Sequence record: KC801932 | Reading direction: 5' to 3' (one strand) | Source of the DNA: Escherichia phage Lw1 | Length of the DNA stretch: 64,000 nt | Part shown: one piece after another, positions 1 through 27,083 of the stretch | Position numbering within the stretch: the stretch's first letter is position 1 | How the letters are laid out: the number at the start of each line of letters is the position of its first letter | The notes under the pieces: model-generated | The model's input: the letters and a program-made list of their open reading frames with translations, nothing else | Database searches by the model: none | Told to the model about the DNA's origin: nothing | Position numbers and translations under genes: made by a program

Positions 1-47
1 TAGTCTCTCTACGTGGCTTAGAGGCGTTTTTAAAGGTGGTTGGATAA

Positions 48-440
48 ATGGCTGTTAACCTTCGCTTACTATACAGCGATATCGACCCGAACTTAACGAA
101 AGACTGGAACAAAGACGTTACCTCCTCGAAAGGGGCGGCAGCAGTAAAGAACAGTCTAATCGGTATCGTAACGACACAAAAAGGCACACGTCCTTTCGAT
201 AGCAACTTTGGTTGTGAGATAGGAGAGCAGATTTTCGAGAACATGAACCCGTTAACAGCGGAATCAGTAAGAACCTCGATTGTATCCGCGATCCGCGCAT
301 ACGAACCCCGTGTTTACAATCTGAATGTTGAAGTGATCCCACAGTATGACGAAAACGCGATCACCGTAACCGTTTACTACAGTATCATTGATGAACCGGA
401 AGAGATTGAAAAAATCAAACTCCAGCTATCATCCTCATAA
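48..440 (+). CDS. 25: baseplate wedge subunit gp25 (lysozyme-like fold)
   Basis: 130 aa; near-collinear with recalled T4 gp25 (LYSDIDP..DWNKDV, KNSL.GI.TT.KG.RPFD..FGC, IDEPEEIEKIKLQL); terminator immediately downstream. Confidence 0.85.
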   Translation: MAVNLRLLYSDIDPNLTKDWNKDVTSSKGAAAVKNSLIGIVTTQKGTRPFDSNFGCEIGEQIFENMNPLTAESVRTSIVSAIRAYEPRVYNLNVEVIPQYDENAITVTVYYSIIDEPEEIEKIKLQLSSS

Positions 441-442
441 CA

Positions 443-476
443 AAAAGCCCCTTCCTTTCGGTTGGGGCTTTTTTAT
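443..476 (+). terminator. hairpin + U-run terminator after gene 25 (aaagccccttcctttcggttggggctttttt)
   Basis: GC stem followed by T6; identical 30-nt sequence recurs at 37722-37753. Confidence 0.7.
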
Positions 477-477
477 G

Positions 478-711
478 TTAACGGGTTTTGAGATTAACCA
501 GCCATGAAGTTTGTGTTTCTAAGCTAATCGCTTTCCAGTCATACGCGACACTATATCCAGAATAAGTTTGACACACAACAGCATTTTCATTCAGAAACTT
601 AACTTTGTGCTTCGCTTCCTCTTCGTTCAAAGCAGCGCACACGAAGTTCTTTTCATACACGCCACCGTTAGGCTGGATAATGGTTTCTTCAATCAGATAT
701 ACACTGTTCAT
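478..711 (-). CDS. hypothetical protein (77 aa)
   Basis: ORF in minus-strand gene array; overlaps next gene start by 4 nt. Confidence 0.5.
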   Translation of the reverse strand: MNSVYLIEETIIQPNGGVYEKNFVCAALNEEEAKHKVKFLNENAVVCQTYSGYSVAYDWKAISLETQTSWLVNLKTR

Positions 712-923
712 GCTAATTCCTTCTCGATTGCTTCGATGATGTGGAGAACGTAACCGTTCAATTCTTTTGCTTTGTTGGCGGCTTCAACCATACCGTAACG
801 AGGAACTTCTAAAACGTTCGCACCTTCGAGCAGGTTGCTTTCGATGTCTACGATTACGTAGCTTTCACCGATTACCGCGCCTTTTCTCCAGTCTTTTACG
901 AATTTCATCATTTTAGCTTTCAT
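708..923 (-). CDS. hypothetical protein (72 aa; start moved to internal ATG MKAKMM)
   Basis: AGGAACGAG RBS before internal ATG at 923; the upstream extension to 983 only reads through the conserved PeSL-like cassette. Confidence 0.5.
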   Translation of the reverse strand: MKAKMMKFVKDWRKGAVIGESYVIVDIESNLLEGANVLEVPRYGMVEAANKAKELNGYVLHIIEAIEKELA

Positions 924-945
924 TTTCTCGTTCCTTTTGGCTGTT

Positions 946-1000
946 CCGTTTCGATATGTGTAATATAGCAAAGCCCTCACCATTAGGCAAGGGCTTTTTG
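946..1000 (-). promoter_or_regulatory. PeSL-like cassette 1 (hairpin + TGnTATATT extended -10 + ACACATATCGAAAC)
   Basis: minus-strand reading: hairpin, TGCTATATT, conserved leader, RBS, ATG; one of six near-identical copies. Confidence 0.6.
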
Positions 1001-1005
1001 TATTT

Positions 1006-1650
1006 TTAGAACTTATTATACAGGATGAAGTTTATTCCTATAGAATTCAATGCTTTACATGCAGCATCGAGGTCTTTAGGTTCTATTTCGATGCTATACT
1101 TAATGCTCTTGAGTACAGGAACTGTTTCGGATTCAAAAGAATCAAGAGTAGGAGTTTCCTGAACTGGTTCTGATGATTTCGTAATCACAATTGATTCCAG
1201 TTCGGATTGAAAGCGCGAAATCGCTTTCTTGTTTGCATACTTGAATTCTTTTGCGTATGCAAACAGCGCACGAATTTTCGAACGGGTTGTGACTACCGTA
1301 CTTTCCTTGTACTCAGCACTACGCAGAAACGATTTGTTGTTGATAAACATTTCTGCTGCAACCAGATTGTTTTTGTTGAAGTATGCTATCATTTCGCTCC
1401 GAGAATGAGTATATACAAATACATACACTTCACGATCTACTGTATACAGACGAGTATATACATGGGCTAAAAATAGATTTTCGCATACCTTATTAAAACG
1501 GTCTTCATTACTGATTGTTGAATTTCGTCTTTCTTTTGTATACGCGGAAAATGCAGAGGATTTGAAGTTCTTAGAGAGTTCTTCTATTTCCTCAATCGTT
1601 TTACCGACCATTAACCTCAACAGTTTTTCATTTTTTGATACATAAGCCAT
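1006..1650 (-). CDS. hypothetical protein (214 aa)
   Basis: ORF with no recognised motif. Confidence 0.5.
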   Translation of the reverse strand: MAYVSKNEKLLRLMVGKTIEEIEELSKNFKSSAFSAYTKERRNSTISNEDRFNKVCENLFLAHVYTRLYTVDREVYVFVYTHSRSEMIAYFNKNNLVAAEMFINNKSFLRSAEYKESTVVTTRSKIRALFAYAKEFKYANKKAISRFQSELESIVITKSSEPVQETPTLDSFESETVPVLKSIKYSIEIEPKDLDAACKALNSIGINFILYNKF

Positions 1651-1666
1651 ATTTCAATTTCTCTTT

Positions 1667-1957
1667 TTAGTGCATAAAAGATTTGATGTAGGTCACAATA
1701 TGTTCCCGACACGAGTCTACTGAGGTGTTTTCAGCAATAGCTGCATTGCAGAAGATTTCACCATCAAGCCAAAACGACAGCAGATATTGAATATCCCTTC
1801 CTTCGTTTTCCTCCTGGTGTTTCTTGATCCGTTCAAAGGCATCTTCGACGCTTTCGGTAGCGGTCAACAGTTCAGAATCACCATCAACCCCAGCCATTTC
1901 CCCAGCTTCTTCGCTGAATTCGCTTTCCAGTTCTTCCCAGTATACGATCGTTATCAT
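1667..1957 (-). CDS. hypothetical highly acidic protein (96 aa)
   Basis: about 23 Asp/Glu versus about 6 Lys/Arg, strongly negative net charge. Confidence 0.5.
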   Translation of the reverse strand: MITIVYWEELESEFSEEAGEMAGVDGDSELLTATESVEDAFERIKKHQEENEGRDIQYLLSFWLDGEIFCNAAIAENTSVDSCREHIVTYIKSFMH

Positions 1958-2090
1958 TGATTACCCCAAACAGATTTTACATTTACAGAGAGGACATTCT
2001 GCCTCTTTAACGCGTAGGCGTTTCGTTGTTGTCTTCTTTGCCGTATTGTGATCATATACATGAAGACAACGGAAGCAGATCACCAAACGT

Positions 2091-2558
2091 TTAGCCGTCA
2101 TAACCGCCACCGCATTTAACATCACCTTCAATGAACAGTTCGCGGTTGTCTCTCAAAAGATTGTATTTCTTTTCGAGTTCCGGCCCGAATGCGTCAGCGT
2201 CTTCATAATAGCTATAATTATAACAACCGCATTCATCATCCCATTCAGGATCATCACCGCATTCGTTGAAATGTACCACTTTGATATCATCAACGCCCAG
2301 TTCTTTCATTTTATTCCAGATATACCGGATGTCAACGCTATGATAACTGAATGCTTCAAGGGTGATACTATCACCATCAATTTGAGGAATACCCCATTTA
2401 GAACGTTGGTCATCGGTAATGATATCCAGTAAAGATTCTACGTTTTCATGTCCGTAAATCTTCGCGACCTCTTCCTCTTTACCAGGACGAACAAGCCCGA
2501 TCCCGATAATAAAGCTACTGCTTGAACTGTTACTTACAAAACCAGAACGGATCTTCAT
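2091..2558 (-). CDS. hypothetical protein with N-terminal leader MKIRSGFVSNSSSSSFI (paralog A, 155 aa)
   Basis: first 17 aa identical to ORF 5968-6480, remainder unrelated; ATGA start/stop overlap with upstream membrane-protein gene. Confidence 0.6.
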   Translation of the reverse strand: MKIRSGFVSNSSSSSFIIGIGLVRPGKEEEVAKIYGHENVESLLDIITDDQRSKWGIPQIDGDSITLEAFSYHSVDIRYIWNKMKELGVDDIKVVHFNECGDDPEWDDECGCYNYSYYEDADAFGPELEKKYNLLRDNRELFIEGDVKCGGGYDG

Positions 2559-2746
2559 CGTCTTACCTCGTATTTCGCGTTCTCAGCGATTTTTTCTTGA
2601 TAGATGTTATATGACATTACCAGAGGCGCAATCGCCACGATAAGCCCTATAAAGCACACAGAGAACTCACGTTTATTGAAAGCCAGGAACGCAATTGCGC
2701 TCCCGACTACAAACACACCTAATGCCAGTAAGAAGAATAGCGTCAT
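2555..2746 (-). CDS. small membrane protein (63 aa, two predicted TM helices)
   Basis: hydrophobic segments LLALGVFVVGSAIAFLAF and FIGLIVAIAPLVM. Confidence 0.5.
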   Translation of the reverse strand: MTLFFLLALGVFVVGSAIAFLAFNKREFSVCFIGLIVAIAPLVMSYNIYQEKIAENAKYEVRR

Positions 2747-3360
2747 TTCGGCAACGTGTCCATTTTGCGTGATTTTTCCAACAGGGTTTTGATTACCGTA
2801 TCCATCGCCTGTTCTGTATCACCATCATGATAGATGATCGCGGTTTGATGCAAACCTTTCACCAAACGATTAATAATGTACGCCATTTCGGTCGGTAACA
2901 GTTTACCCGTTTCGTTGAATTTTTCAAACAGTTTGAACAGTTCTTCGTTATTCCCTTTCTTACTGAAATTGAAATTGTGCATACCAGACAGAAGACCATC
3001 CAGATACAGAACTGTTTTGTTATCAGAGCGGAGGTGTCCACCGATTTTGTAGTAGTTGCTGAAAACGTATGGCGCTTCACGAACATCATTGATTTCTAAA
3101 CCAGCATCATCGATATTGCCTACGTGGGAGAAGAAATCCGCATCGTTATCGAACAGGTTGATCGCGCCTTTCTTGTACGGGAAGCCAGCCAGATTAATGA
3201 CCCCCTTTTCATACGCATTATCGTTATCAACGACAACGTATTCAGGAAGCATAGGGGCATACGGTTTGTTTTTGTCGTGGTTTTCGCGATACGCTAAAGG
3301 TTCAGCCAGATAGAGGATATCGCCTTGTTTGACTTCATCCCAAAAGATATTACGTGACAT
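2743..3360 (-). CDS. hypothetical protein (205 aa; start at MSRNIFWDE)
   Basis: ORF track extension to 3528 overlaps the upstream gene and is rejected; start set at the internal ATG just downstream of the 3375-3395 hairpin. Confidence 0.45.
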   Translation of the reverse strand: MSRNIFWDEVKQGDILYLAEPLAYRENHDKNKPYAPMLPEYVVVDNDNAYEKGVINLAGFPYKKGAINLFDNDADFFSHVGNIDDAGLEINDVREAPYVFSNYYKIGGHLRSDNKTVLYLDGLLSGMHNFNFSKKGNNEELFKLFEKFNETGKLLPTEMAYIINRLVKGLHQTAIIYHDGDTEQAMDTVIKTLLEKSRKMDTLPK

Positions 3361-3400
3361 ATTAAATTCCTCAATATGCCCCCTTTCGGGGGCTATTTCA

Positions 3401-5620
3401 TTACAGTTTAACTTCTTTTTCTTCCAGAACGATTTCGCAATCGAATGTTGCATCTTTCCAGAACTCATGCGGGATGATTTTGTCTGCTTTAACCGATACT
3501 TTGGTTTCTTCAAAATCCAGATCCGCAAACCAGGCGTGGCCTACAACGATACCGTACATTACACGGCTCAGGCGCTTGTTCAGTGCGCGTACTTCGTTGA
3601 TGGTTGCCTTTGTTTCTTTATCAAGGTACTCGATTACCTTATCCTTGTCAAGCGCTGCGAGTTCAGCTTTAACAGCATCGTAAGCCCACAGGATGATCAG
3701 GTCGCCGTTGTTCAGTTTCTTCTTACCTTCGGCACGTTTCGCAACAGTTGCCGCTACAGCAGGAAGGGAGGAAACACCCTTGATTTTCAGATTCAGTTCT
3801 TTCGACATATAAACATCAGTCGAATCGGTACGGGTTACTTTCGGGGAGAATCCATAATCACGAATACCCTGTTCAGATAACCATTCACCAGCGGCTTCAC
3901 CGTATTTCTGTTTCAGACCTTCGGCATTACGTAAACCGATCGCGTCGTCACGGAAGAACTTCATCACCTTCTGACGACCTTTCAGGATTTCCAGACGGAT
4001 AGAGTCGTTTACATACTCTTTACCGGAGATCCCGCGAGTCATCGCACGGTTAACCAGAGGCAGACTTGTAAAGTCAACCAGTACCGACATGCGGTCTTCA
4101 CCGATTTTTGCCAGCGGCTTGATAGTCAAACCAGAAGCGCGAAGGTTTTTCAGTGTCGGAATATCGGTTTCCAGTGGCAGAACCTTAACGTTTACGATCC
4201 CATCTTTAACGATGGTGAAGTTACGCACCTGCTTAGTTTCGATTTTTTCCGGCAGTCCCAGTTCTTTCTGTTTGCTTTCTGGGATAGTTACGTAACCTTG
4301 CAGATCCGTGTTAATGGAAATGTTAGGACGTGAACTGTTGCCGACCAGATGTTTAACCGATACTTTGGTTGTTGTCTGGGTAAATTTCGGTGTCCATATT
4401 TCGTGCGTTACCATTTGTGCGGCTAATGCTTTGCGTTCTTCCGGTGTTTTCGCATTTGCGATCTGTTCTGACAGTTGATCCAGAGTATCATCTTCTTTCT
4501 GTACTGTCTGACGGCCTGTACGGTTGTACGCCCAGTGTTCAGAAGACAGGTCGATCACTGTGTCAGTTTCTGCCAGCAGTTCGAGAGCATCAACCAGAGT
4601 GAATGCGTTTTCGTCTGGAACCATGTTGTAATCAACACCTTCAATCAGACGTTTACCCGCATCAACTACCGCTTCCGCGATCAGGTCTTTGGCGTTGGAA
4701 TAATCCTGCTTAGTAAAGCAGTTATCGTAAGCCTTAATCAGACGAACGTCACCGACTTTTTTCAGCACTTTCCATGCCAGATCAGGGTTCATGGTATGAA
4801 GTGCATGATACAGAACCACGTACAGAACCTGTTCACCTTCCATCGTAGCCGGATCAAATCCGTCGATATCGTTGATTGCGTTTTCACCCAGCGCCCAGAT
4901 GTTTTTGATGTGTTCTGGAACCAGTACAACACCATTTGCAGCGTTCAGGACATACACGCGCCCTTCGTCCAGATAGATCGCATGGGTAGCGTCACCGACC
5001 TTGACTTCAACACGCGGTGATGTTTGCGCGGTGATGATTTCAGCAAATGCTGGCTCGTATGCGTCGAAACCTTCAACGAATTTATGCAATGCGTTGGTTG
5101 CTTCTGCCATTTTTTCCAGCAGCGGACGGTTTACATAATAACCGTATTCCAAGAACGCGATGCTGTTAAAAGTCAGCGGGAGAACCGCACACGCTTTCAG
5201 GATGTCATCGGTACGCCAGCAGTTATCATAACCATCCGTAAGGAAGATCAGGCTGTTCAGATTGCCGTTTTCGGATTGCAGATCAGTTGCGATTTCCGCA
5301 GCCAGGTTCAGAGGTTCAACGAAACCAGTACAACCAGTGGGTTTCAGATAGCGGTCGATCGCGGTGCAGATGTTAGTCAGATCGGATACGTTGCTAACCT
5401 TCTCACCACGGAACACAGTACCGTAATCGCCTTTGCTGGAGAAGTACAGAATCGAAACTGTATCATCCTGTTTAACCAGACTCGCCAGGTTTGCTTTCAG
5501 ATGTTTACGGATTTTCGGGAGTTCGTTATACATAGAACCGGAAACGTCACACACGAAAACGTGGTTGGTCGGAGTCGGCTTCGATACTGCGTTTTTGAAT
5601 TCGATATTTGTAATTGACAT
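3401..5620 (-). CDS. von Willebrand factor A (vWA) domain protein, 739 aa
   Basis: N-terminal MIDAS-type motif VFVCDVSGSM ... LYFSS ... FLTDG (DxSxS..T..D); long C-terminal region of unknown function. Confidence 0.6.
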   Translation of the reverse strand: MSITNIEFKNAVSKPTPTNHVFVCDVSGSMYNELPKIRKHLKANLASLVKQDDTVSILYFSSKGDYGTVFRGEKVSNVSDLTNICTAIDRYLKPTGCTGFVEPLNLAAEIATDLQSENGNLNSLIFLTDGYDNCWRTDDILKACAVLPLTFNSIAFLEYGYYVNRPLLEKMAEATNALHKFVEGFDAYEPAFAEIITAQTSPRVEVKVGDATHAIYLDEGRVYVLNAANGVVLVPEHIKNIWALGENAINDIDGFDPATMEGEQVLYVVLYHALHTMNPDLAWKVLKKVGDVRLIKAYDNCFTKQDYSNAKDLIAEAVVDAGKRLIEGVDYNMVPDENAFTLVDALELLAETDTVIDLSSEHWAYNRTGRQTVQKEDDTLDQLSEQIANAKTPEERKALAAQMVTHEIWTPKFTQTTTKVSVKHLVGNSSRPNISINTDLQGYVTIPESKQKELGLPEKIETKQVRNFTIVKDGIVNVKVLPLETDIPTLKNLRASGLTIKPLAKIGEDRMSVLVDFTSLPLVNRAMTRGISGKEYVNDSIRLEILKGRQKVMKFFRDDAIGLRNAEGLKQKYGEAAGEWLSEQGIRDYGFSPKVTRTDSTDVYMSKELNLKIKGVSSLPAVAATVAKRAEGKKKLNNGDLIILWAYDAVKAELAALDKDKVIEYLDKETKATINEVRALNKRLSRVMYGIVVGHAWFADLDFEETKVSVKADKIIPHEFWKDATFDCEIVLEEKEVKL

Positions 5621-5629
5621 TTAAATTTC

Positions 5630-5968
5630 TCAGTATTTGGTTGTTTTATGTGCGTTTAAAATGCTTTGGATTTTTTCGGAAATCGTTTGCTGGTCTGGTT
5701 CACATCCCAACTTACCGCCAATCACCTTATAAAAATCTTCAACAGAGCTTACGTTAAAATCCGACATATCGAAACCTAAAGAATACATATGTGGATTTGT
5801 AAATTTGTAAACACCTACATCATACTCGTTAAGGTCGAAACGTTCAAGATATTTCTTCAAAGAGAATAAATCGAACGGTAGCGGAAGATGTTGTTCAATC
5901 GATACAGGTTCCCCCAGCTTATGCGCTTTTAGCGTTGCCGCTTTCGTGTACGTCATTTCTTCTTTCAT
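5630..5968 (-). CDS. hypothetical protein (112 aa)
   Basis: ORF; ATGA overlap with upstream gene. Confidence 0.5.
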   Translation of the reverse strand: MKEEMTYTKAATLKAHKLGEPVSIEQHLPLPFDLFSLKKYLERFDLNEYDVGVYKFTNPHMYSLGFDMSDFNVSSVEDFYKVIGGKLGCEPDQQTISEKIQSILNAHKTTKY

Positions 5969-6480
5969 CAGTGGTGACTCTTTGATGTATGTTCAAGGTT
6001 ACGGAAGATGTCGCCGTGTTCCATTTGTGTTCCAACAGGTCCGCATTCATCCGAGTAAGTAAACTCGTAGATAAACACACCGTTCTGATTACCGTACTTC
6101 ATGTTGTACTCTTCATACAACCACATCTTGATCAGAGCGTCTTTCTCTTCGGTTTCTAAATCGTACCAATCCCGACCATCATATGCAAGCGCAATTTGAG
6201 GATTTGAACGATAACGGGTTTCCGCGCTATCTTCGGTTTCCCAATCATAACGCTTATCGTCATAAAACGATTCAAAGCTGTTACCCATATGACCGCCCAA
6301 ATCACGGTGTACATGGTTGATCACTTCTTCGGATGTCAGCGACGGGGTATAGTAACCGCACGTAGGATGACAGTCACCCATCATTTCGCGCAGGTTGTCG
6401 ATATTAGTCGGATCTTTCGGGAACCGGACAATGAAACTACTTGATGAGCTATTGCTCACAAAACCAGAACGGATTTTCAT
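5968..6480 (-). CDS. hypothetical protein with N-terminal leader MKIRSGFVSNSSSSSFI (paralog B, 170 aa)
   Basis: same 17-aa N-terminus as 2091-2558, encoded with synonymous differences; ATGA overlap with upstream gene. Confidence 0.6.
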   Translation of the reverse strand: MKIRSGFVSNSSSSSFIVRFPKDPTNIDNLREMMGDCHPTCGYYTPSLTSEEVINHVHRDLGGHMGNSFESFYDDKRYDWETEDSAETRYRSNPQIALAYDGRDWYDLETEEKDALIKMWLYEEYNMKYGNQNGVFIYEFTYSDECGPVGTQMEHGDIFRNLEHTSKSHH

Positions 6481-6728
6481 TGTGCATCCTCAAAATTAAT
6501 TAAATCTTTTGTAATCGTAGGTATGTCTTTTTTCGAAACGGTCGCGTTACACAACAGTTTCCCCGTGAAACCATCGTATATACTGACGCTATAATAGGCA
6601 CACGTACATTTGACTTTCTCTAGTCTTTTCATTTCGTCAATGATTACATGGATGGAAACGGATGTCGCCTTTAAATCAACTAATTCATAATAATCATGCG
6701 ATACAGTTTCAAGAGTATAGATATTCAT
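6477..6728 (-). CDS. hypothetical protein (83 aa)
   Basis: ORF in overlapping gene chain. Confidence 0.45.
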   Translation of the reverse strand: MNIYTLETVSHDYYELVDLKATSVSIHVIIDEMKRLEKVKCTCAYYSVSIYDGFTGKLLCNATVSKKDIPTITKDLINFEDAQ

Positions 6729-6934
6729 GGTTTGCCTTTTGTTTCGGATTTCAGGACGATGTTACTGTAAGGATCTTTTGCTACCAGTTCCCACAGGTCG
6801 CCAGGGTGTTCACCGCTACGGTAAACCGACGAACATATAATCTCATTAAATTTGCTTACGGCTTCGTCGATGTCGTCATACCCGTGTTTGAGGGGCTTAC
6901 GATTACACCGGATGAAAAACATTTCTTTATTCAT
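6725..6934 (-). CDS. hypothetical protein (69 aa)
   Basis: ORF in overlapping gene chain. Confidence 0.45.
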   Translation of the reverse strand: MNKEMFFIRCNRKPLKHGYDDIDEAVSKFNEIICSSVYRSGEHPGDLWELVAKDPYSNIVLKSETKGKP

Positions 6935-7205
6935 TGACTTTCACCATATTAGACATTATTTCTTCAAATGTCACGGGAATTTCTTTAGGATCGCGATCAC
7001 CATCGTCCCATTCCTCTCGATGTCCTTTAATTTTGCTAACTGCGATCTTTTTGTCGTTTTCCCACACGGTTACTTCAATGCGGTCGCCAACGTAAGGAAA
7101 GCTGGGGTGTTTGTTGATTGCATCAACACAGGTTTGGAGGGATTCAGAGACTTGAATGACTTCACCGAAATCATAATCTCCATGACGGGCCAGAACATAG
7201 ATCAT
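6927..7205 (-). CDS. hypothetical protein (92 aa)
   Basis: ORF in overlapping gene chain. Confidence 0.45.
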   Translation of the reverse strand: MIYVLARHGDYDFGEVIQVSESLQTCVDAINKHPSFPYVGDRIEVTVWENDKKIAVSKIKGHREEWDDGDRDPKEIPVTFEEIMSNMVKVNE

Positions 7206-7375
7206 AGAACCCCCAGGGTGCGCCCCATTTTACTCATGATATCAGCAAATATCATGAAGTTGACAATAAACACAACGACAATACAAATATTAGATGTTAT
7301 GCGATGCCCTCGTTCGGCACATGCCATAGAAAGATATAACAACACATAAAGGAAAACAATTATTAGCCATAGCAT
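7202..7375 (-). CDS. small membrane protein (57 aa; start at MLWLII)
   Basis: GAGGA RBS 9 nt upstream of ATG at 7375; hydrophobic throughout. Confidence 0.45.
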   Translation of the reverse strand: MLWLIIVFLYVLLYLSMACAERGHRITSNICIVVVFIVNFMIFADIMSKMGRTLGVL

Positions 7376-7385
7376 AATATAATCC

Positions 7386-7589
7386 TCACTGGATATAGCG
7401 GTTGTAGTTGACGTGCCACATGAGACTTGACACAACATCATAAGCAAGCAAAGAGAACAAGACAAAAGTCACTATCAAAAGGATAGCTAACCAAGTAGTT
7501 CCGATCTGGTGTTTTGAAGATAACAACAAACACACGATACTGACAAAAGAAAGTACAGTGATAACAAGCATCACGATTGAAGGGGCCAT
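7386..7589 (-). CDS. small membrane protein (67 aa)
   Basis: two hydrophobic helices; GAGGA RBS; preceded by terminator hairpin 7607-7622. Confidence 0.5.
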   Translation of the reverse strand: MAPSIVMLVITVLSFVSIVCLLLSSKHQIGTTWLAILLIVTFVLFSLLAYDVVSSLMWHVNYNRYIQ

Positions 7590-7630
7590 AATACAATCCT
7601 CACAAAAGCCCCTTTCGGGGCTTGATTTAA

Positions 7631-7909
7631 TCAGTGTCCGAACACACCACGAATTGATTCAGCGAAAGCGTAGAACGCGGGGTTGTTTTCTTTCAACATT
7701 GCTTCTGATTTCAAAAGATACTCACCTTTAAACTTAGTACCAAACAGACAGTAAGAGAAAGAGCGATCCCACATGAAGCAGTTGTAATACTCACCACAAC
7801 GAACTTCAACCATCACGTAACCAGGATTAGAACCTTCGGCATACTCTTTCAGGAGGTTGTATTTCGCATCAGCACCAGGAAAACCAGCCAGCAAATCGTT
7901 GTAAGTCAT
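7631..7909 (-). CDS. hypothetical protein (92 aa)
   Basis: ORF followed by hairpin terminator. Confidence 0.5.
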   Translation of the reverse strand: MTYNDLLAGFPGADAKYNLLKEYAEGSNPGYVMVEVRCGEYYNCFMWDRSFSYCLFGTKFKGEYLLKSEAMLKENNPAFYAFAESIRGVFGH

Positions 7910-7981
7910 GATGTATTCCTTTTTCGGTTTCGTTTCAACAAGGACACTGTATTATAATTCAATCATCATTGCAAGCACTTT

Positions 7982-8236
7982 TTAAAAAAGATGCGTTAAA
8001 TGTCCTGCATTGCTGGGGTATTCGACGTAATCACCACGGAAGATGTTCAAATCTTTATCAAATTTAAACCCATGTCCTTGAACATCTTCATGACGAGATA
8101 CATAAGATACTCCATACTTTTCAAGGTCTTCCATATACATTTCGGTGATTCTCTTCGCTTTATCCAATCCGCGTCCCTCAAATCGAGAACGTCGATAATT
8201 CGCAAGAAGAAACGCATATAATTCTTCGTATGTCAT
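7982..8236 (-). CDS. hypothetical protein (84 aa)
   Basis: ORF; overlaps upstream methyltransferase gene end. Confidence 0.45.
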   Translation of the reverse strand: MTYEELYAFLLANYRRSRFEGRGLDKAKRITEMYMEDLEKYGVSYVSRHEDVQGHGFKFDKDLNIFRGDYVEYPSNAGHLTHLF

Positions 8237-9144
8237 TTCAATACCTTTCTGATTTGTTTCGCTATGGCTTCGATCACGGGTATTGAAACTGAATTTCCCG
8301 CTTGACGATATGCCTGTTTTTTACTATCCGGTATGATAAATGAATCAGGGAATCCCTGCAAACGAAAACACTCACGGGGAGTAAGTCTTCTGGGGTTCTT
8401 TCCTTCCTGCAACACCAGACATTGAACGCCGTCCTTGTAATACTGCTGGGTTATCGTCCCAGTGTGCGTAGAATCGCTTGTGACGGCCTGATAACCAAAC
8501 CCCTTACCATTCGCCTTGTTTCGTTCCTTACGCTCTCTAAAGCCTTTCCACGCGTTATCTGATAGGGTGTATGAATCATCAGCATCTTCGAGGATATCGC
8601 CCACTCTCGTAGGGGTACGCGGAGGAACAGGAAACGAAAAGAATACATCATCCAGGAAGCAAACAATAAACACACGTTCACGTCTTTGTGGTAGTCCGAA
8701 ATCTTTTGTATTCAGTCGTTGATAGAATACGTTATATCCTTCGGCCTCCAGAAGCCCGTAAATCGTTTTAAACGTCTTCCCCTTGTCATGGGTTAGTAGT
8801 TCAGGCACGTTCTCAAAGAACAGCACACGGGGCTTTTTAGCGCGTATGATGCGGAGTATTTCAAAGAACACAGTACCGCGAACATCATCGAACCCCAGTT
8901 TTAATCCTGCTTTACTGAATGCCTGACACGGGAACCCAGCCAACAGGATATCGTGATCAGGTACTTCGGTTTCTTTTATCTGGAACAGATCTCCCTGTAG
9001 GTTATCATTGCCCCAGTTTTCGATATATGTTTGCTGTGCGAACTTGTCGATTTCAGACGTTAAAAGGCATTCGACACCGCCGAACGCCTTATCAAATCCT
9101 AATCGAACCCCGCCCACACCAGCACAGAGGTCAATTATTTTCAT
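8233..9144 (-). CDS. DNA (cytosine-5)-methyltransferase, Dcm-like
   Basis: all canonical C5-MTase motifs in order: I DLCAGVGG, IV GFPCQAFS, VI FENVPEL, VIII QRRERVF, IX RLTPRECFRLQGFPDSF, X GNSVSIPV. Confidence 0.9.
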   Translation of the reverse strand: MKIIDLCAGVGGVRLGFDKAFGGVECLLTSEIDKFAQQTYIENWGNDNLQGDLFQIKETEVPDHDILLAGFPCQAFSKAGLKLGFDDVRGTVFFEILRIIRAKKPRVLFFENVPELLTHDKGKTFKTIYGLLEAEGYNVFYQRLNTKDFGLPQRRERVFIVCFLDDVFFSFPVPPRTPTRVGDILEDADDSYTLSDNAWKGFRERKERNKANGKGFGYQAVTSDSTHTGTITQQYYKDGVQCLVLQEGKNPRRLTPRECFRLQGFPDSFIIPDSKKQAYRQAGNSVSIPVIEAIAKQIRKVLK

Positions 9145-9401
9145 ACGTCAAAATCAATCTCGTCAATTTTGTATGAGTTTTCGTCAATGTCCGCCCATAG
9201 GGTTACATTGACGTGTTTACTATCTTCGTACAGATTACGCCCGTTCATCCCGCCCGTGTAATTGCTTTCGGTACGTTCAGTAACTTCCAGTCGGAGGCTA
9301 TCGCGCATGATCTGAACAACAGCCTGTTCCAGCGTAACCGCGTCTGGGTTTTTGGTATCGCCCAGTACAACGTCTTTAACGTTCAAAATAACATCAGTCA
9401 T
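9141..9401 (-). CDS. hypothetical protein (86 aa)
   Basis: ORF. Confidence 0.45.
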   Translation of the reverse strand: MTDVILNVKDVVLGDTKNPDAVTLEQAVVQIMRDSLRLEVTERTESNYTGGMNGRNLYEDSKHVNVTLWADIDENSYKIDEIDFDV

Positions 9402-9685
9402 TAGTAAAATTTCCCATAGGTGTTGAAATTTACGTGCGTCGGGCTTGCTTCTTCAACACGAATTTCATAATCATAATCCTCATTTGTTACGGAACGATCA
9501 TGTTTGATGACATCAACGATATATACCCGGAAGAATGCATGATACAGCGCATCGCGGATCTTTTCAGCAAGTACCGGAGGCTCACTATACAGGTTAATCA
9601 TATCGGAAACAATATCCTCTACGCGAGGAATATCGCGTTTATCAATATAACCAGTATATAAATTTACTTCTTTCATTAATGCCAC
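9401..9685 (-). CDS. hypothetical protein (94 aa)
   Basis: ORF. Confidence 0.45.
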   Translation of the reverse strand: MALMKEVNLYTGYIDKRDIPRVEDIVSDMINLYSEPPVLAEKIRDALYHAFFRVYIVDVIKHDRSVTNEDYDYEIRVEEASPTHVNFNTYGKFY

Positions 9686-9921
9686 TCCGTTTCGATACCG
9701 TATTTGTATGCGTCAATCCCCAGAGGGGTGATCAACAGACACATATCAGTATTTTCGTTTGGCGACTTAAACGCCGCAGTTGCGTAACCTTTTTCAATCA
9801 GGGCATTACGCCCTGATTTACTGGGTACGTCATCGAAATCCAATGTTAACACCTGTGATGCATATCTGTAAAGTTTATACAGCACGTCAATTTCAGCACC
9901 GGATAATTTCGGGAATGTCAT
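9676..9921 (-). CDS. hypothetical protein (81 aa)
   Basis: ORF. Confidence 0.45.
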   Translation of the reverse strand: MTFPKLSGAEIDVLYKLYRYASQVLTLDFDDVPSKSGRNALIEKGYATAAFKSPNENTDMCLLITPLGIDAYKYGIETEWH

Positions 9922-10916
9922 TTGTAGTACCCCACAACGTGATCGCGATAAACGCGTTCGATAAAGTCGTTCCAGAACTCGCGATCAACCTCTTTCGGAT
10001 AATTAGAGACTGCTGCAAGGCGTTCGACTTCACCCATGATTTCTTCCAGCTTTTCCTGGACAAAAGTGAAAGGTTTCGTTCCGGCTTTAACTTCTTTTAA
10101 AAGCTGGCTCTCTTCCAGAGGATATACGATATCACCATGTTTGTAAATGCTGATAAGCTGTAAGCCTCCGCGCAATGCGTGAGAAAGTGCTTTCCAGTCG
10201 ATCCCGTTGTTGGCTTCTGCCTGTCTTGCTCGTTCACCATATTCGTCCCAGAGTTTATACACTGACTTTTTCATTTCAGCTACGGTGATCGTAGACTGGA
10301 ATTTGCGCCCCAGCACTTCATAGAAGTCCTGACAACCGGATTTCAGGGTTTTGTCTGTAGTGAATCGACAGAACTCATTGGTCGGGAATGTGTGAGAGAC
10401 TTCACCAACTTTGATGTGATGTGTTGCGTCACCCAGATTAGACGGCATACGAACAATGCGGCTATTTGGTGTATCCTGCAACACATCGTATACTTCACGC
10501 AGTGCAGCCAGGCGAGAACCTTTAACGCCATACTTCGCCGCTTGCTTACGAACATAACCAAACAGGCCAGTTAGTTCCGTAGTGTAGAAACGTGAACGGT
10601 TAGCGCGGATATACTGCCAGATTTCGGAGTTAGCGATCATCTTACTATCATCAGCATGAAGCATATCGAGCGCTACGGTATCACCATCACACGCAAGGCT
10701 AATGAACTTAGGCAGACTATACAACTGACGGTCGATGTCGTCTACGGTGTTCTTAGAGCTTTTATCGCCCGTGCTCGTGTCGATAGTCTTCGGGGCTTTA
10801 CCCAGTAAGATATCGCGTGGATGCGGGAGAAAGATCCCTTTATAATCTTTGTCGCTTGTCGGGGTGTTCAGTCCATACAGGTGAGAACCGAACACAGTTT
10901 CCATTACAATTTTCAT
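9918..10916 (-). CDS. Pol-beta superfamily nucleotidyltransferase (332 aa)
   Basis: N-terminal GS-x9-[DE]h[DE] signature FGSHLYGLNTPTSDKDYKGIF with third acidic residue about 60 aa downstream (ALDMLHADD); helical C-terminal half. Confidence 0.55.
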   Translation of the reverse strand: MKIVMETVFGSHLYGLNTPTSDKDYKGIFLPHPRDILLGKAPKTIDTSTGDKSSKNTVDDIDRQLYSLPKFISLACDGDTVALDMLHADDSKMIANSEIWQYIRANRSRFYTTELTGLFGYVRKQAAKYGVKGSRLAALREVYDVLQDTPNSRIVRMPSNLGDATHHIKVGEVSHTFPTNEFCRFTTDKTLKSGCQDFYEVLGRKFQSTITVAEMKKSVYKLWDEYGERARQAEANNGIDWKALSHALRGGLQLISIYKHGDIVYPLEESQLLKEVKAGTKPFTFVQEKLEEIMGEVERLAAVSNYPKEVDREFWNDFIERVYRDHVVGYYK

Positions 10917-11311
10917 AGTTCAATACCTAATGTTTTTGCGATATCTTTCAGTTGAAATGTAGCGATTTCGGGAACAACAACATAATGAGTACCGAACTCT
11001 TTTCGTATTTTTTCGCACAGTTCAGTACGATACTGAATTTCATTGTATACAGTTTCGCTGCGATACATATAAAATCCACCCCATCCACCACCAGAACCCG
11101 AAGTCAACCCGCACTTACGATCGACTTTCTCAACGTTCCAGTCTTTCGCGTCAGCATCTTTGTTGGTGGATGCGTACAAGTATTGACGAGCAACCTTGAT
11201 TACGTGAAACACGCGAGGATTTTCGACTCTGCGATTATTGTAATTTCTTGTACCCGGATCGTAAATGGTATCACCCACTTTCACATCAGTTAAATCTTTC
11301 AAATTATTCAT
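10913..11311 (-). CDS. hypothetical protein (132 aa, Gly-rich GSGGGWGG)
   Basis: ORF; overlaps neighbours by 4 nt. Confidence 0.45.
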   Translation of the reverse strand: MNNLKDLTDVKVGDTIYDPGTRNYNNRRVENPRVFHVIKVARQYLYASTNKDADAKDWNVEKVDRKCGLTSGSGGGWGGFYMYRSETVYNEIQYRTELCEKIRKEFGTHYVVVPEIATFQLKDIAKTLGIEL

Positions 11312-11559
11312 TTCATTTTCCAGCAGTTTTTCTTTTCACAGTAGAATAACGGGAGTTTAGACAGCACCGGAGTAACCACATCTTCGCCCGTTTTCGTATT
11401 ATGTGTCAGTTCAACAGTCAACGACTGACCAGAAGCAGATTTCACAATATCCAGTTCTAGGATCTCACGATTACCCTTTGTATTGATTTCCGCAACATAG
11501 TAATCATGCCCGTTGATATCGACAACATCGCCCATCAGAATGCTTCTGGTATGTTTCAT
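11308..11559 (-). CDS. hypothetical protein (83 aa)
   Basis: ORF. Confidence 0.45.
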   Translation of the reverse strand: MKHTRSILMGDVVDINGHDYYVAEINTKGNREILELDIVKSASGQSLTVELTHNTKTGEDVVTPVLSKLPLFYCEKKNCWKMK

Positions 11560-12131
11560 TTGAATGTCACCTTCGTATACAGCGAGGACATCAAAGAACG
11601 GTCAACACCGTCAATAACAATCATACCCTGGTACGCGTCTTTGTCTTTGCGGGAGTACATACGGCACAGCAGCGAACCATCTTTTGCGATGTATTCAACC
11701 TGGTATGTGCGACGTTCTGTTTTCAGAATATCACCAATAGCAACCGGACGTTCTACCTTTTCACGAGTATTGAGCGCGAACGATAATACATTGTCACCAT
11801 CACAAACGACCGCTGTATCTTTCGCGGATACATCGCGACTGTCAATGCTATGGATGCTCACGGAATAAACACTATCGGAAATCAACATATGTGCATCACC
11901 GGAACCTACTTTAGCGATGATAGTTGATGCGGTCTTAGTACGCGTATCGGAAGCAAACACATACACAGTAATCGGTACACCACTTTGAGTGTCTTTCGCA
12001 ACAGATTGAACAGTGAACGATTCTTTTAACCCACGAGATCGTGAGTGATTGATATAAACACTATCACCAGGGATCAGAGCGCGACGGACAACTTTGGTTT
12101 CTTCGGTTTTAATAAATGCAGTTTTGTTCAT
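11556..12131 (-). CDS. hypothetical protein (191 aa)
   Basis: ORF. Confidence 0.45.
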   Translation of the reverse strand: MNKTAFIKTEETKVVRRALIPGDSVYINHSRSRGLKESFTVQSVAKDTQSGVPITVYVFASDTRTKTASTIIAKVGSGDAHMLISDSVYSVSIHSIDSRDVSAKDTAVVCDGDNVLSFALNTREKVERPVAIGDILKTERRTYQVEYIAKDGSLLCRMYSRKDKDAYQGMIVIDGVDRSLMSSLYTKVTFK

Positions 12132-24880: not shown

Positions 24881-25191
24881 TTACTTTTGATTCTGTTGCA
24901 TTCTTCCGCACACTCTTTTTCCGCAAGGATTTTGCGAACAACCGCGTTTCTGATTTTCCAGAGATAATCGATCATCTGCATATCTTCGGGAGTGTGATAA
25001 CCTTTCATATCGCATTCAAATACGATAGCATCGCGTTCTGACATTGCCATTATCGCGGTAGCCGAACAAATGGTCATCCCACTATATTTTTCAATCAACG
25101 ATTCCAGTGTACGCTTTTCTGCCGGAATGTCAACAGTTATCGGAACAGGACGGATTCTTGTAGTCGAATCGTCGAAGGATTGATAAATCAT
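24865..25191 (-). CDS. hypothetical protein (108 aa)
   Basis: ORF. Confidence 0.45.
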   Translation of the reverse strand: MIYQSFDDSTTRIRPVPITVDIPAEKRTLESLIEKYSGMTICSATAIMAMSERDAIVFECDMKGYHTPEDMQMIDYLWKIRNAVVRKILAEKECAEECNRIKSKWGVL

Positions 25192-26342
25192 TTTAACTCC
25201 ACTGCATAAACATCGGTTTCGGGGGCTTTGTGTACGCGCATATCTTTACCACATACCGCATAAGCCGGACAGTTGCGACAACCGTTATGATCCGTGTTGC
25301 CTGTCAGTTCTTTACGGAACTGTTTTGTTTTCGGGTGTTCCCAGATATCTTTGATAAAATCATCGGCTTCAAGGACATTCAAACCTTCACCCCAGCCACC
25401 TTCAACCCAACGTTCGGTAAACGAGCAAGGGAAGAATTCGCCTTTTTCGTTGATGTAAGAGCTAAACATCGTCGCTTCACAATCTTCCGCATACTGCTTG
25501 TATTGTTCGAAGTTCGGGTGTCCCTCCATCGCTTCAACGAAAGCTGGGGCTGAACAGCTATCGAATCCAAATCCTACACCAGAATCAAGGCAGTATTCAA
25601 CAAGTTTTTTGTATTGTTCGCGGGTGACTGTATCCCAGTTCTTACCACGTCCCTTTTGTTTCAGACCCAGGAACACGATCGCGTTGACTTGTTTCAGGCG
25701 CGGATCATTACGCACAGCATCAACAACGGTAAACGCATCATCATAGGTCTTTGAGCTAACCATGAAATGTAGGTTGATTTGCTGTTGTCCTGCTTCTGCC
25801 AGGTTTGCGACGGAATCGAAAGCAACATCGAAGCCAGCATGTTTATAAACCGATACTGCAACAGCCCCAGCAACCGCCGCTAAACGCGCTGCAACGTCTT
25901 TTGATACATCAGCAATGGTAAGGTTCGGTACAATGCCTTTAGAACGCGCATAGGCCATCATATCGAACATATCAGGGTTTGTTTGTCCCTGTGCATCAGC
26001 ACCGAGTGCGCATTGGGTTAACCAGGGCATTTTATCAATGATGGATTTGAAAGAAGCAAGATCCATATTGTAGCCGTTCGGGTTATTGGACTTGTAACAG
26101 AAACCACACAGCTTACCAGCGGGGCCATTACATTTAGTTGTGATCTCGATATCGAGGATAAAAGGAAAATGACTATAAATAGGATCGTCAGCAGGAGTTT
26201 TGCCCCAAGTCATCATATGACCTGTTTTCATATCAAAATTAAAATTAACCTCTTCGGAACGATAGATTTTCTTTCCTTTCGCTTCCAGTAGAAGTCCAAC
26301 AGGCGTTTTGATATGTTTGGCGTTTACTTTAACGTGTCTCAT
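25188..26342 (-). CDS. Fe-S protein, radical-SAM-like with C-terminal SPASM/twitch-like Cys motif
   Basis: ITTKCNGPAGKLCGFCY (Cx7Cx2C, rSAM-like TxxCN..C.FCY context) and C-terminal CRNCPAYAVC (Cx2Cx5C); start set at MRHVKV with GAGGT RBS. Confidence 0.45.
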   Translation of the reverse strand: MRHVKVNAKHIKTPVGLLLEAKGKKIYRSEEVNFNFDMKTGHMMTWGKTPADDPIYSHFPFILDIEITTKCNGPAGKLCGFCYKSNNPNGYNMDLASFKSIIDKMPWLTQCALGADAQGQTNPDMFDMMAYARSKGIVPNLTIADVSKDVAARLAAVAGAVAVSVYKHAGFDVAFDSVANLAEAGQQQINLHFMVSSKTYDDAFTVVDAVRNDPRLKQVNAIVFLGLKQKGRGKNWDTVTREQYKKLVEYCLDSGVGFGFDSCSAPAFVEAMEGHPNFEQYKQYAEDCEATMFSSYINEKGEFFPCSFTERWVEGGWGEGLNVLEADDFIKDIWEHPKTKQFRKELTGNTDHNGCRNCPAYAVCGKDMRVHKAPETDVYAVELK

Positions 26343-26354
26343 AGGAACCTCATA

Positions 26355-27083
26355 ATGTATTACGTTTACAGAATCACAAATGTTATAGAGAACAAGCACT
26401 ATTATGGATCAAGAAAACCTAAAAAGTCAATGCTTGCTTCCGACGATTTAGGGAAACACTATTTCAGTAGTTCCCGTGATAGTCATTTCATCCAAGATCA
26501 GAAGGAAAATCCAGGACACTACAAATATAAAGTAATCGTATCGGGGTTGTCAAGGGAAAAGGCGATGAAACTTGAGAAAAGGTTACACGAAATCTACAAG
26601 GTGGACACGAACCCACATTTTTATAACAAACACATACACAACAGCGTTGATTTTTCATGTACACCAGAAACAGGAAAGAAGATTTCACAAACACACCAGA
26701 AATATGCAGCAAAGAAAATTTCAGAATCACATAAAAGGCGATTCAAGGAAGGTATAGCATCACATAAAGGAGAGAACAACCCACGATACAACGATCATCG
26801 GTCTTATGAAGAGATACACGGAGAAGAAAAAGCGGAGACTATACGCAAAGCACAATCTGAATCAAGAAGAGGAAAAGGCAATTCCCGCGCGGTTACGTGG
26901 AAATTTACTTCCCCTAATGGAGAAGAATTTTTAGTTGAAGGAGAATGTAAAAAGTTTTGCAAAGACAGAAATATTTCCATGCGTAAACTGAAAACCTATC
27001 TGGGTGAAGTCATCACAACATGCGATAAACCCTACTATATCTCTAAGAATACCGTAGGATGGAAATTAGAAAAGATTATTTGA
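26355..27083 (+). CDS. GIY-YIG homing endonuclease (Seg-like)
   Basis: N-terminal MYYVYRITN...HYYGS (GIY..YIG), basic C-terminal DNA-binding region; lone plus-strand gene among minus-strand genes. Confidence 0.7.
   Translation: MYYVYRITNVIENKHYYGSRKPKKSMLASDDLGKHYFSSSRDSHFIQDQKENPGHYKYKVIVSGLSREKAMKLEKRLHEIYKVDTNPHFYNKHIHNSVDFSCTPETGKKISQTHQKYAAKKISESHKRRFKEGIASHKGENNPRYNDHRSYEEIHGEEKAETIRKAQSESRRGKGNSRAVTWKFTSPNGEEFLVEGECKKFCKDRNISMRKLKTYLGEVITTCDKPYYISKNTVGWKLEKII

Follow-up and report, generated by a model that had tools for sequence, protein, structure and literature searches.

The stretch analyzed here, referred to as the window, comprises 64,000 nucleotides of Escherichia phage Lw1 (KC801932) and contains two genes whose otherwise unrelated products start with the same 17 residues. 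This N-terminal leader, here called the tag, is conserved at the peptide level, is spread over thousands of unrelated proteins of large phages, and is genomically linked to and co-occurs with a gene for a radical S-adenosylmethionine (rSAM) enzyme. The phage belongs to the T4-type phages of the RB43 group (Pseudotevenvirus), and the region shows 94–95% DNA identity to Citrobacter phage Miller, RB16 and RB43. Gene A (2091..2558, minus strand) encodes 155 aa with a small alpha/beta cargo and the C-terminal end CGGGYDG. Gene B (5968..6480, minus strand) encodes 170 aa with a chiefly helical cargo; its product, a member of phrog_7397, matches Escherichia phage Lw1 gp116 at 100% identity. The tag, MKIRSGFVSNSSSSSFI, corresponds to codons 1–17 of both genes (2508..2558 in gene A and 6430..6480 in gene B, minus strand).

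A preliminary description of this locus had reported two unrelated proteins with an identical leader, and its coordinates and the exact match over residues 1–17 were borne out, the strand being the one detail missing from it. Past the leader, BLASTP found no other common stretch, and profile–profile alignment of the two families was confident over the leader only. A six-frame scan of the window recovered these two copies and no third. By sequence comparison, chance is excluded as the source of 17 consecutive identical residues in otherwise unrelated proteins. At the nucleotide level, 10 of the 51 leader positions differ between the two genes, all silently, and these include a complete switch between AGC and TCA serine codons. 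Among metagenomic homologues, residues M1–F16 are invariant in family A and R4 and G6–F16 in family B, though the bodies of both families diverge down to about 30% identity, which supports the earlier proposal of selection on the peptide. Both start codons also overlap the stop codon of an upstream small open reading frame (ORF) in an ATGA arrangement (read as ‘tcat’ on the plus strand at 2555–2558 and 6477–6480), as had been described.

Neither protein A nor protein B was matched by Pfam or NCBIfam, and profiles of the two families matched no chain in the PDB. The cargo of protein A is related to a widespread ‘GAGRNG-COOH’ family (hhalign probability 97%), and a fold search with this protein returned weak ferredoxin-like matches only; protein B has the conserved C-terminus YSDExG...EHGDIFRN..H...SHH. 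A remote homology of A and B with a common fold was rejected, as no hhalign signal was left once the tag had been removed. Likewise, we discarded an assignment of protein A to the ‘head-tail adaptor’ family phrog_132, which was matched by close A homologues only; P0030 (54% identical) and more distant family members remained unmatched, and Pfam was silent.

In the AlphaFold models, protein A (predicted local distance difference test score (pLDDT) 86.7) has residues 1–11 below 50 and a strand at 12–23, and protein B (pLDDT 82.3) has residues 1–10 below 50 and a strand at 13–20. In both, the first beta strand opens with tag residues 12–17. These models describe the tag as a flexible N-terminal tail joined without a linker to different folds. 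The cargos being non-homologous, the N-terminus is not part of a common globular domain, a case that the preliminary description had named as one that would refute its reading. Residues 12–17 do, however, enter the first strand in the models.

The tag on unrelated phage proteins

Further proteins starting with the leader were sought in IMG/VR using a degenerate DNA pattern for KIRxGFVSNSSSSSF. The scan yielded at least 265 tag ORFs of 36–399 aa in at least 120 loci, mostly on contigs of 35–460 kb. The resulting consensus of 16–18 residues is M-K-I-R-x-G-F-V-S-N-S-S-S-S-S-F-(I/V/C/L)2, and the peptide is also written MKIRSGFVSNSSSSSFIV. KIR is preceded by M, V or L in 216 of 220 non-redundant ORFs and by A or I in the other four; in the single A case inspected (locus L058), a Met is found one residue further upstream (MAKIR). 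Although the scan pattern permitted Thr, Cys and Arg, the ‘Ser’ positions are Ser in 92–100% of cases. Across 273 copies, both AGY and TCN codons are used at each of the six Ser positions, and all six serine codons are in use among hundreds of other phage genes with the motif. The presence of both codon classes at every Ser position therefore indicates selection on the peptide and not on the DNA; conservation at the DNA level, i.e. as a recombination or regulatory site, was ruled out by this synonymous codon spectrum.

After removal of the tag, the 220 non-redundant proteins fell into 73 BLAST clusters. A comparison of the 19 largest clusters of an enlarged set (499 sequences) by hhalign joined few of them, and A and B stayed unrelated. 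The leader thus heads about 73 unrelated clusters beyond the window, answering the search that the preliminary description had asked for, and these comparisons mark it as an N-terminal module that is portable between unrelated cargos. Tag genes often form tandem, translationally coupled arrays, for example of five or six genes in L058, and the arrays reach up to 13 genes. In seven metagenomic proteins (P0068, P0070, P0071, P0076, P0079, P0109 and P0164) two tags are present, the second being internal and mostly preceded by Met; these sequences have the appearance of in-frame fusions of tandem tag genes or of readthrough by the gene caller.

To cover a wider range of proteins, a tag-only profile was searched against 1.84 billion representative proteins, which gave 21,072 clusters (50% identity) at E ≤ 1e-3, where the lower-confidence matches may include serine-rich false positives, and 1,179 clusters at E ≤ 1e-10. 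A query with the leader alone in a word-indexed protein database retrieved four short fragments only. The 185,579 species genomes of bacteria and archaea that were searched yielded 33 matching stretches, all but one on contigs of metagenome-assembled genomes (MAGs), which look like mis-binned phage. Among the tag proteins scanned, none was matched by a Pfam or NCBIfam model, and phrog_7397 (family B) is the only PHROG with the tag. Searching the GenBank phages by tblastn with the bare tag gave no matches, the low-complexity filter probably masking the serines, and tblastn of two other cargo families against the same records gave nothing useful.

Some of the MAG contigs (loci L122–L154) had been binned as Patescibacteria, Nanoarchaeota, Omnitrophota, Heimdallarchaeota and others; they carry tag arrays together with the rSAM gene and look like contigs of huge phages mis-binned into MAGs. 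One of them, JBAZKE010000006.1 (78,067 bp), is equal in length to IMG/VR contig 3300029288_000143. L125 (NZ_JBHSCL010000010.1, 178,077 bp), from an isolate assembly of ‘Flagellimonas marina’, contains, like RB43-type phages, two tag genes (3,950 bp apart) as well as the vWA gene also found in the window (see below); its length fits a genome of such a phage, and it is very likely a contaminating Pseudotevenvirus genome.

At the other end, many tag families share brief conserved motifs, among them W-Y-D/N-G, G-T-R-x-C, S-H-H and N-D-N-Y at the C-terminus. Recurrent C-termini of unrelated families can be summarized as (G/A)(G/W)(Y/R/H)(D/N)G, G-T-R-x-(C/S), S-(H/N/Q)-H, N-D-N-(Y/H) and E-G-G-Y; an example is the end of gene A (2091–2111), and many other loci show the same. 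The models place the last strand close to the tag-proximal one, in a shared region of the sheet, so that both protein ends may form one site.

The preliminary description had compared the leader to signals for capsid targeting, secretion or protease recognition. By inspection, a Sec, Tat or lipoprotein signal was rejected: the tag has neither an RR motif nor a lipobox nor a hydrophobic core, and its polar SNSSSSS part is followed by only two to six hydrophobic residues, which AlphaFold places in a beta sheet. Capsid targeting deserves closer attention, given that the window phage is T4-type and that a short conserved N-terminal leader on small, hypervariable and often tandemly encoded proteins is also the architecture of the T4 internal proteins with their capsid targeting sequence (PMC3012670). 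According to this explanation, the tag would load diverse anti-defence proteins into the prohead for co-injection, and its linkage to the rSAM gene would be incidental or secondary. However, the tag has no similarity to the T4 consensus MKTYQEFIAE and is followed by no conserved cleavage site, in particular no (L/I)-x-E site of the prohead protease; positions 19–30 are variable with no fixed Glu, and L30-x-E32 occurs in family B only. In the models, residues 12–17 are moreover part of the first strand of the cargo fold, and the linked gene encodes a radical SAM enzyme instead of a head protein. The genomic context is also early-looking: A and B belong to a long cluster on the minus strand that includes genes for a Dcm methylase and an RlaP-family protein, and the T4 late-promoter consensus TATAAATA has no match within positions 1–12,000, which is indirect evidence on the time of expression. 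We found no virion proteome for the A or B proteins in the literature, and PMC6412083 does not contain one. Based on these differences, we regard a capsid-targeting or injection signal as very unlikely.

Genomic linkage to a radical SAM/SPASM gene

The rSAM gene of the window (25188..26342, minus strand; phrog_7293) encodes 384 aa from its ATG, or 403 aa from an alternative GTG start at 26399, with a C-terminal SPASM/twitch Fe-S domain. It is matched by the Pfam SPASM model (9.3e-6) and by the NCBIfam models for SPASM (1.8e-5), twitch rSAM (3e-5) and rSAM maturase (2.2e-6) proteins. Two Cys in C-x2-C-Y-K are invariant in the family, a third lies 3–7 residues upstream in most members, and further conserved cysteines are C263, C288, C306 and a CxxC at about 355–358. 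In the spacing of its C-terminal cysteines, the enzyme is similar to BtrN with its one-cluster twitch domain. Ahead of the rSAM core lie about 55–60 residues, about 45 of which are conserved. Searched against the PDB, the family profile matched SuiB (1.6e-6) and SkfB (7e-6), followed by BtrN and PqqE, so that by profile comparison its nearest solved relatives are the peptide-modifying rSAM maturases SuiB and SkfB. No anSME or Hxs models were among its NCBIfam matches. In GenBank, the enzyme is labelled ‘radical SAM protein’ and the tag proteins are labelled ‘hypothetical’.

The linkage was first found by comparing every ORF of the window with the tag loci using tblastn. The rSAM/SPASM gene was the single ORF that stood out, with homologues of up to 51% identity in 58 loci that are not of RB43 type. 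Of 149 loci ascertained by the tag, 54 contain the enzyme, and all tag genes there lie on the strand of the enzyme gene; the closest tag start lies at a median distance of 917 bp from the enzyme midpoint, i.e. the genes are adjacent. For the reverse sampling by the enzyme, an alignment of 37 sequences was too diverse as a query, and a closer subset of eight sequences was used. Tag genes were present within 10 kb in 49 of the 61 loci obtained; all 180 of these genes share the strand of the enzyme gene, and none is opposite to it. Most of them start 12–1000 bp past the stop codon of the enzyme gene, in arrays of up to 13. Considering only contigs new relative to the tag scan, 30 of 41 carried tag genes. 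No other conserved gene was found in the enzyme/tag neighbourhoods.

In 50,697 GenBank phage records, the enzyme was found in 171 and the tag region in 175; compared by organism name, not by accession, the two sets have nearly identical counts (phages of Klebsiella, Enterobacter, Cronobacter, Citrobacter and Escherichia). The cultured Vibrio jumbo phage D479, one of two records with an enzyme identity below 60% (57%), carries at least five same-strand tag genes within 12 kb.

An explanation that leaves the enzyme aside would let the tag act on its own, as a degron or stability signal, as a beta zipper for self-association or as a motif recognized by a conserved host machine, with the enzyme acting on nucleotides, DNA or other targets. 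Residues 1–11 are unstructured in the AlphaFold models, which is typical of short linear binding motifs; the enzyme gene is not adjacent to A and B in the window; and a few metagenomic proteins carry an internal second tag. Such an autonomous motif would, however, leave the linkage unexplained, as enzyme homologues of 27–51% identity are still the sole gene consistently tied to the arrays, and also the confinement of tag and enzyme to what seem to be the same groups of cultured phages. In addition, 16 near-invariant residues go far beyond the known needs of a degron, and the very diverse host phylogeny speaks against a host partner. We therefore consider an enzyme-independent role of the tag to be quite unlikely.

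The tag as a putative maturase substrate

Based on the linkage, we propose that the tag is probably the recognition and modification site of a phage rSAM/SPASM maturase that serves many folded proteins. A single rSAM enzyme would act on small folded proteins from dozens of unrelated families, each presenting the tag at its extreme N-terminus, where the flexible residues 1–11 ahead of the first modelled strand would be accessible to the enzyme. This would resemble the logic of ribosomally synthesized and post-translationally modified peptides (RiPPs), with one maturase and many precursors sharing a leader, except that the ‘cores’ would be whole proteins. We infer that the enzyme binds the tag and chemically alters it. 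From the ideas of the preliminary description, a processing signal survives in this broad sense, through the tight linkage to an rSAM/SPASM maturase; capsid targeting, secretion and protease recognition do not.

Several points weigh against this proposal. The window enzyme lies on the same strand as A and B, but 19–23 kb upstream of them and hence not adjacent to either tag gene. Of the enzyme-ascertained loci, 12/61 have no tag gene within 10 kb, including some with truncated flanks and one with a tag gene about 16 kb away. Agreement in strand alone is weak evidence, since phage gene clusters are generally co-oriented. The enzyme is matched by no characterised rSAM equivalog, and the Pfam and NCBIfam searches detected the rSAM core and the SPASM domain only, with no PqqD-like RiPP recognition element (RRE), a domain that is common in RiPP maturases, though not universal. 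Finally, the link is purely genomic, and a docking role of the tag would yield the same genomic pattern.

In such a docking role, the tag would tether variable cargos to the rSAM enzyme as specificity domains, and the cargos would bring host molecules to the enzyme for modification or inactivation. The linkage data fit this explanation as well as they fit a maturase with its substrates, and one enzyme with many variable partners and no other conserved partner gene would suit it. On the other hand, the six invariant serines together with N10, F7 and F16 look more like reactive or recognized residues of a substrate than like a docking strand, and known rSAM/SPASM systems with several small linked genes are enzyme–substrate pairs. 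To our knowledge, there is no precedent for up to 13 adaptors per single enzyme. Overall, docking appears unlikely.

rSAM maturases with SPASM or twitch domains and linked substrates include SuiB with streptide, SkfB, AlbA, PqqE with PqqA and MftC with MftA, and the use of many precursors is known from the prochlorosins. Like the RiPP systems with rSAM enzymes, the phage system comprises an rSAM enzyme with an auxiliary Fe-S domain, encoded in an operon with one to many small genes whose products have a conserved recognition sequence in common and vary elsewhere. In contrast to RiPP precursors, the putative substrates here are folded proteins of 80–400 aa from dozens of unrelated families, and the conserved element comprises only 16–18 residues and is itself the likely modification site. 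The tag contains no known core motif (Cys, Trp-Lys, Glu-Tyr or C-terminal Tyr), and the system, in which neither RRE nor PqqD was detected, is overwhelmingly phage-encoded. The tag–rSAM pair is most likely an rSAM maturase with linked substrates, and full-text literature searches on the motif, on SPASM enzymes of phages and on RB43-group radical SAM genes returned no description of it.

Regarding the chemistry, the anaerobic sulfatase-maturating enzyme (anSME), which converts Ser or Cys to formylglycine, and BtrN are dehydrogenases that abstract hydrogen at the C-beta of serine. For the poly-Ser tag, dehydrogenation of serine side chains would suit, and by analogy we speculate that hydrogen abstraction at Ser C-beta could lead to formylglycine or another oxidised serine; equally speculative candidates are a Phe/Asn/Ser cross-link or epimerisation. 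Membership in the anSME/formylglycine substrate class itself was rejected, as the tag has no (C/S)-x-(P/A)-x-R. Serine-containing sequences are also matured in the bacterial HXS defence system, in which HxsB/HxsC act on the HxS-repeat effector HxsA (PMC13128918). As in the anSME and HXS cases, the target of the rSAM enzyme would be a short stretch with serine in a protein of full size, and HXS shows that rSAM protein modification operates in the conflict between phage and bacterium (PMC13128918). Unlike HXS, the tag has no HxS repeats, and one enzyme would serve many unrelated proteins on the phage side.

The function of the cargos can be approached through their context. Because the arrays are hypervariable, the proteins small and the genes located among early-type oriented genes with no late-promoter match nearby, we speculate that the cargos could be effectors of host takeover or anti-defence whose activity, stability or localisation would depend on the modification. 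A more far-reaching and rather doubtful version would see here a protein-tagging system of the phages' own, in which the single rSAM enzyme puts a novel chemical group on the universal 16-residue tag and thereby licenses a very large and rapidly evolving set of unrelated early effectors, be it that these become active, are shielded from degradation or attack host targets covalently. If true, this would define a new class of ribosomally made, radical-SAM-modified proteins with more than 20,000 clusters and possibly a new radical chemistry on a poly-serine/Asn/Phe motif.

If the enzyme modifies the tag, a widespread and so far unannotated post-translational modification system specific to large phages would emerge, concerning tens of thousands of ‘hypothetical’ proteins. 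The tag would provide a single handle for finding likely effector proteins in phage genomes, and a short portable tag with its cognate enzyme might become a tool for protein engineering. Cultured phages of E. coli and Klebsiella (RB43, Lw1 and KP15-type), which are used in phage therapy, make the enzyme–motif pair directly testable. Even with ordinary chemistry, the link would explain the conservation pattern and give the annotated ‘radical SAM protein’ a role.

Neighbouring genes of the tag and enzyme loci

As stated in the preliminary description, A and B bracket a vWA gene (3401–5620, minus strand; 739 aa; phrog_2426), which has a Pfam VWA match in its N-terminal domain; three further ORFs of 63, 205 and 112 aa also lie between them. 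The suggestion that the vWA gene forms part of the module was not upheld, as it accompanies the tag only in RB43-type phages (10/121 loci, the Miller reference locus L001 among them); it is a lineage-specific neighbour outside the system. Phages of the RB43 and Slopekvirus types conserve it together with the 205-aa ORF (2743–3360, minus strand) and the 112-aa ORF (5630–5968, minus strand); apart from the vWA domain at the N-terminus of the 739-aa protein, no function is annotated for these three genes.

The RlaP-family ORF of the minus-strand cluster (9918–10916, minus strand; 332 aa) has a domain of this family (Pfam PF10127, nucleotidyltransferases of an RNA-repair pathway), and homologues are found in five tag loci of unrelated phages. 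A 569-aa ORF (MPTTPRKARMLLREGKAKV...) recurs beside tag arrays, in L132 (4156–5866) and nine other tag loci; by eye, it resembles a mobile endonuclease of the HNH/IscB type.

Next to the rSAM gene of the window, a 256-aa ORF on the opposite strand (26313–27083, plus strand) abuts its 5' end. The N-terminus of this ORF (YVYRITN...YYGS) resembles GIY-YIG homing endonucleases, with no Pfam match at 1e-3, and the late-promoter consensus is present just upstream of it (26174–26181, plus strand). In Vibrio phage D479, an annotated homing endonuclease is likewise located directly beside the rSAM homologue (L226, 13124–13852).

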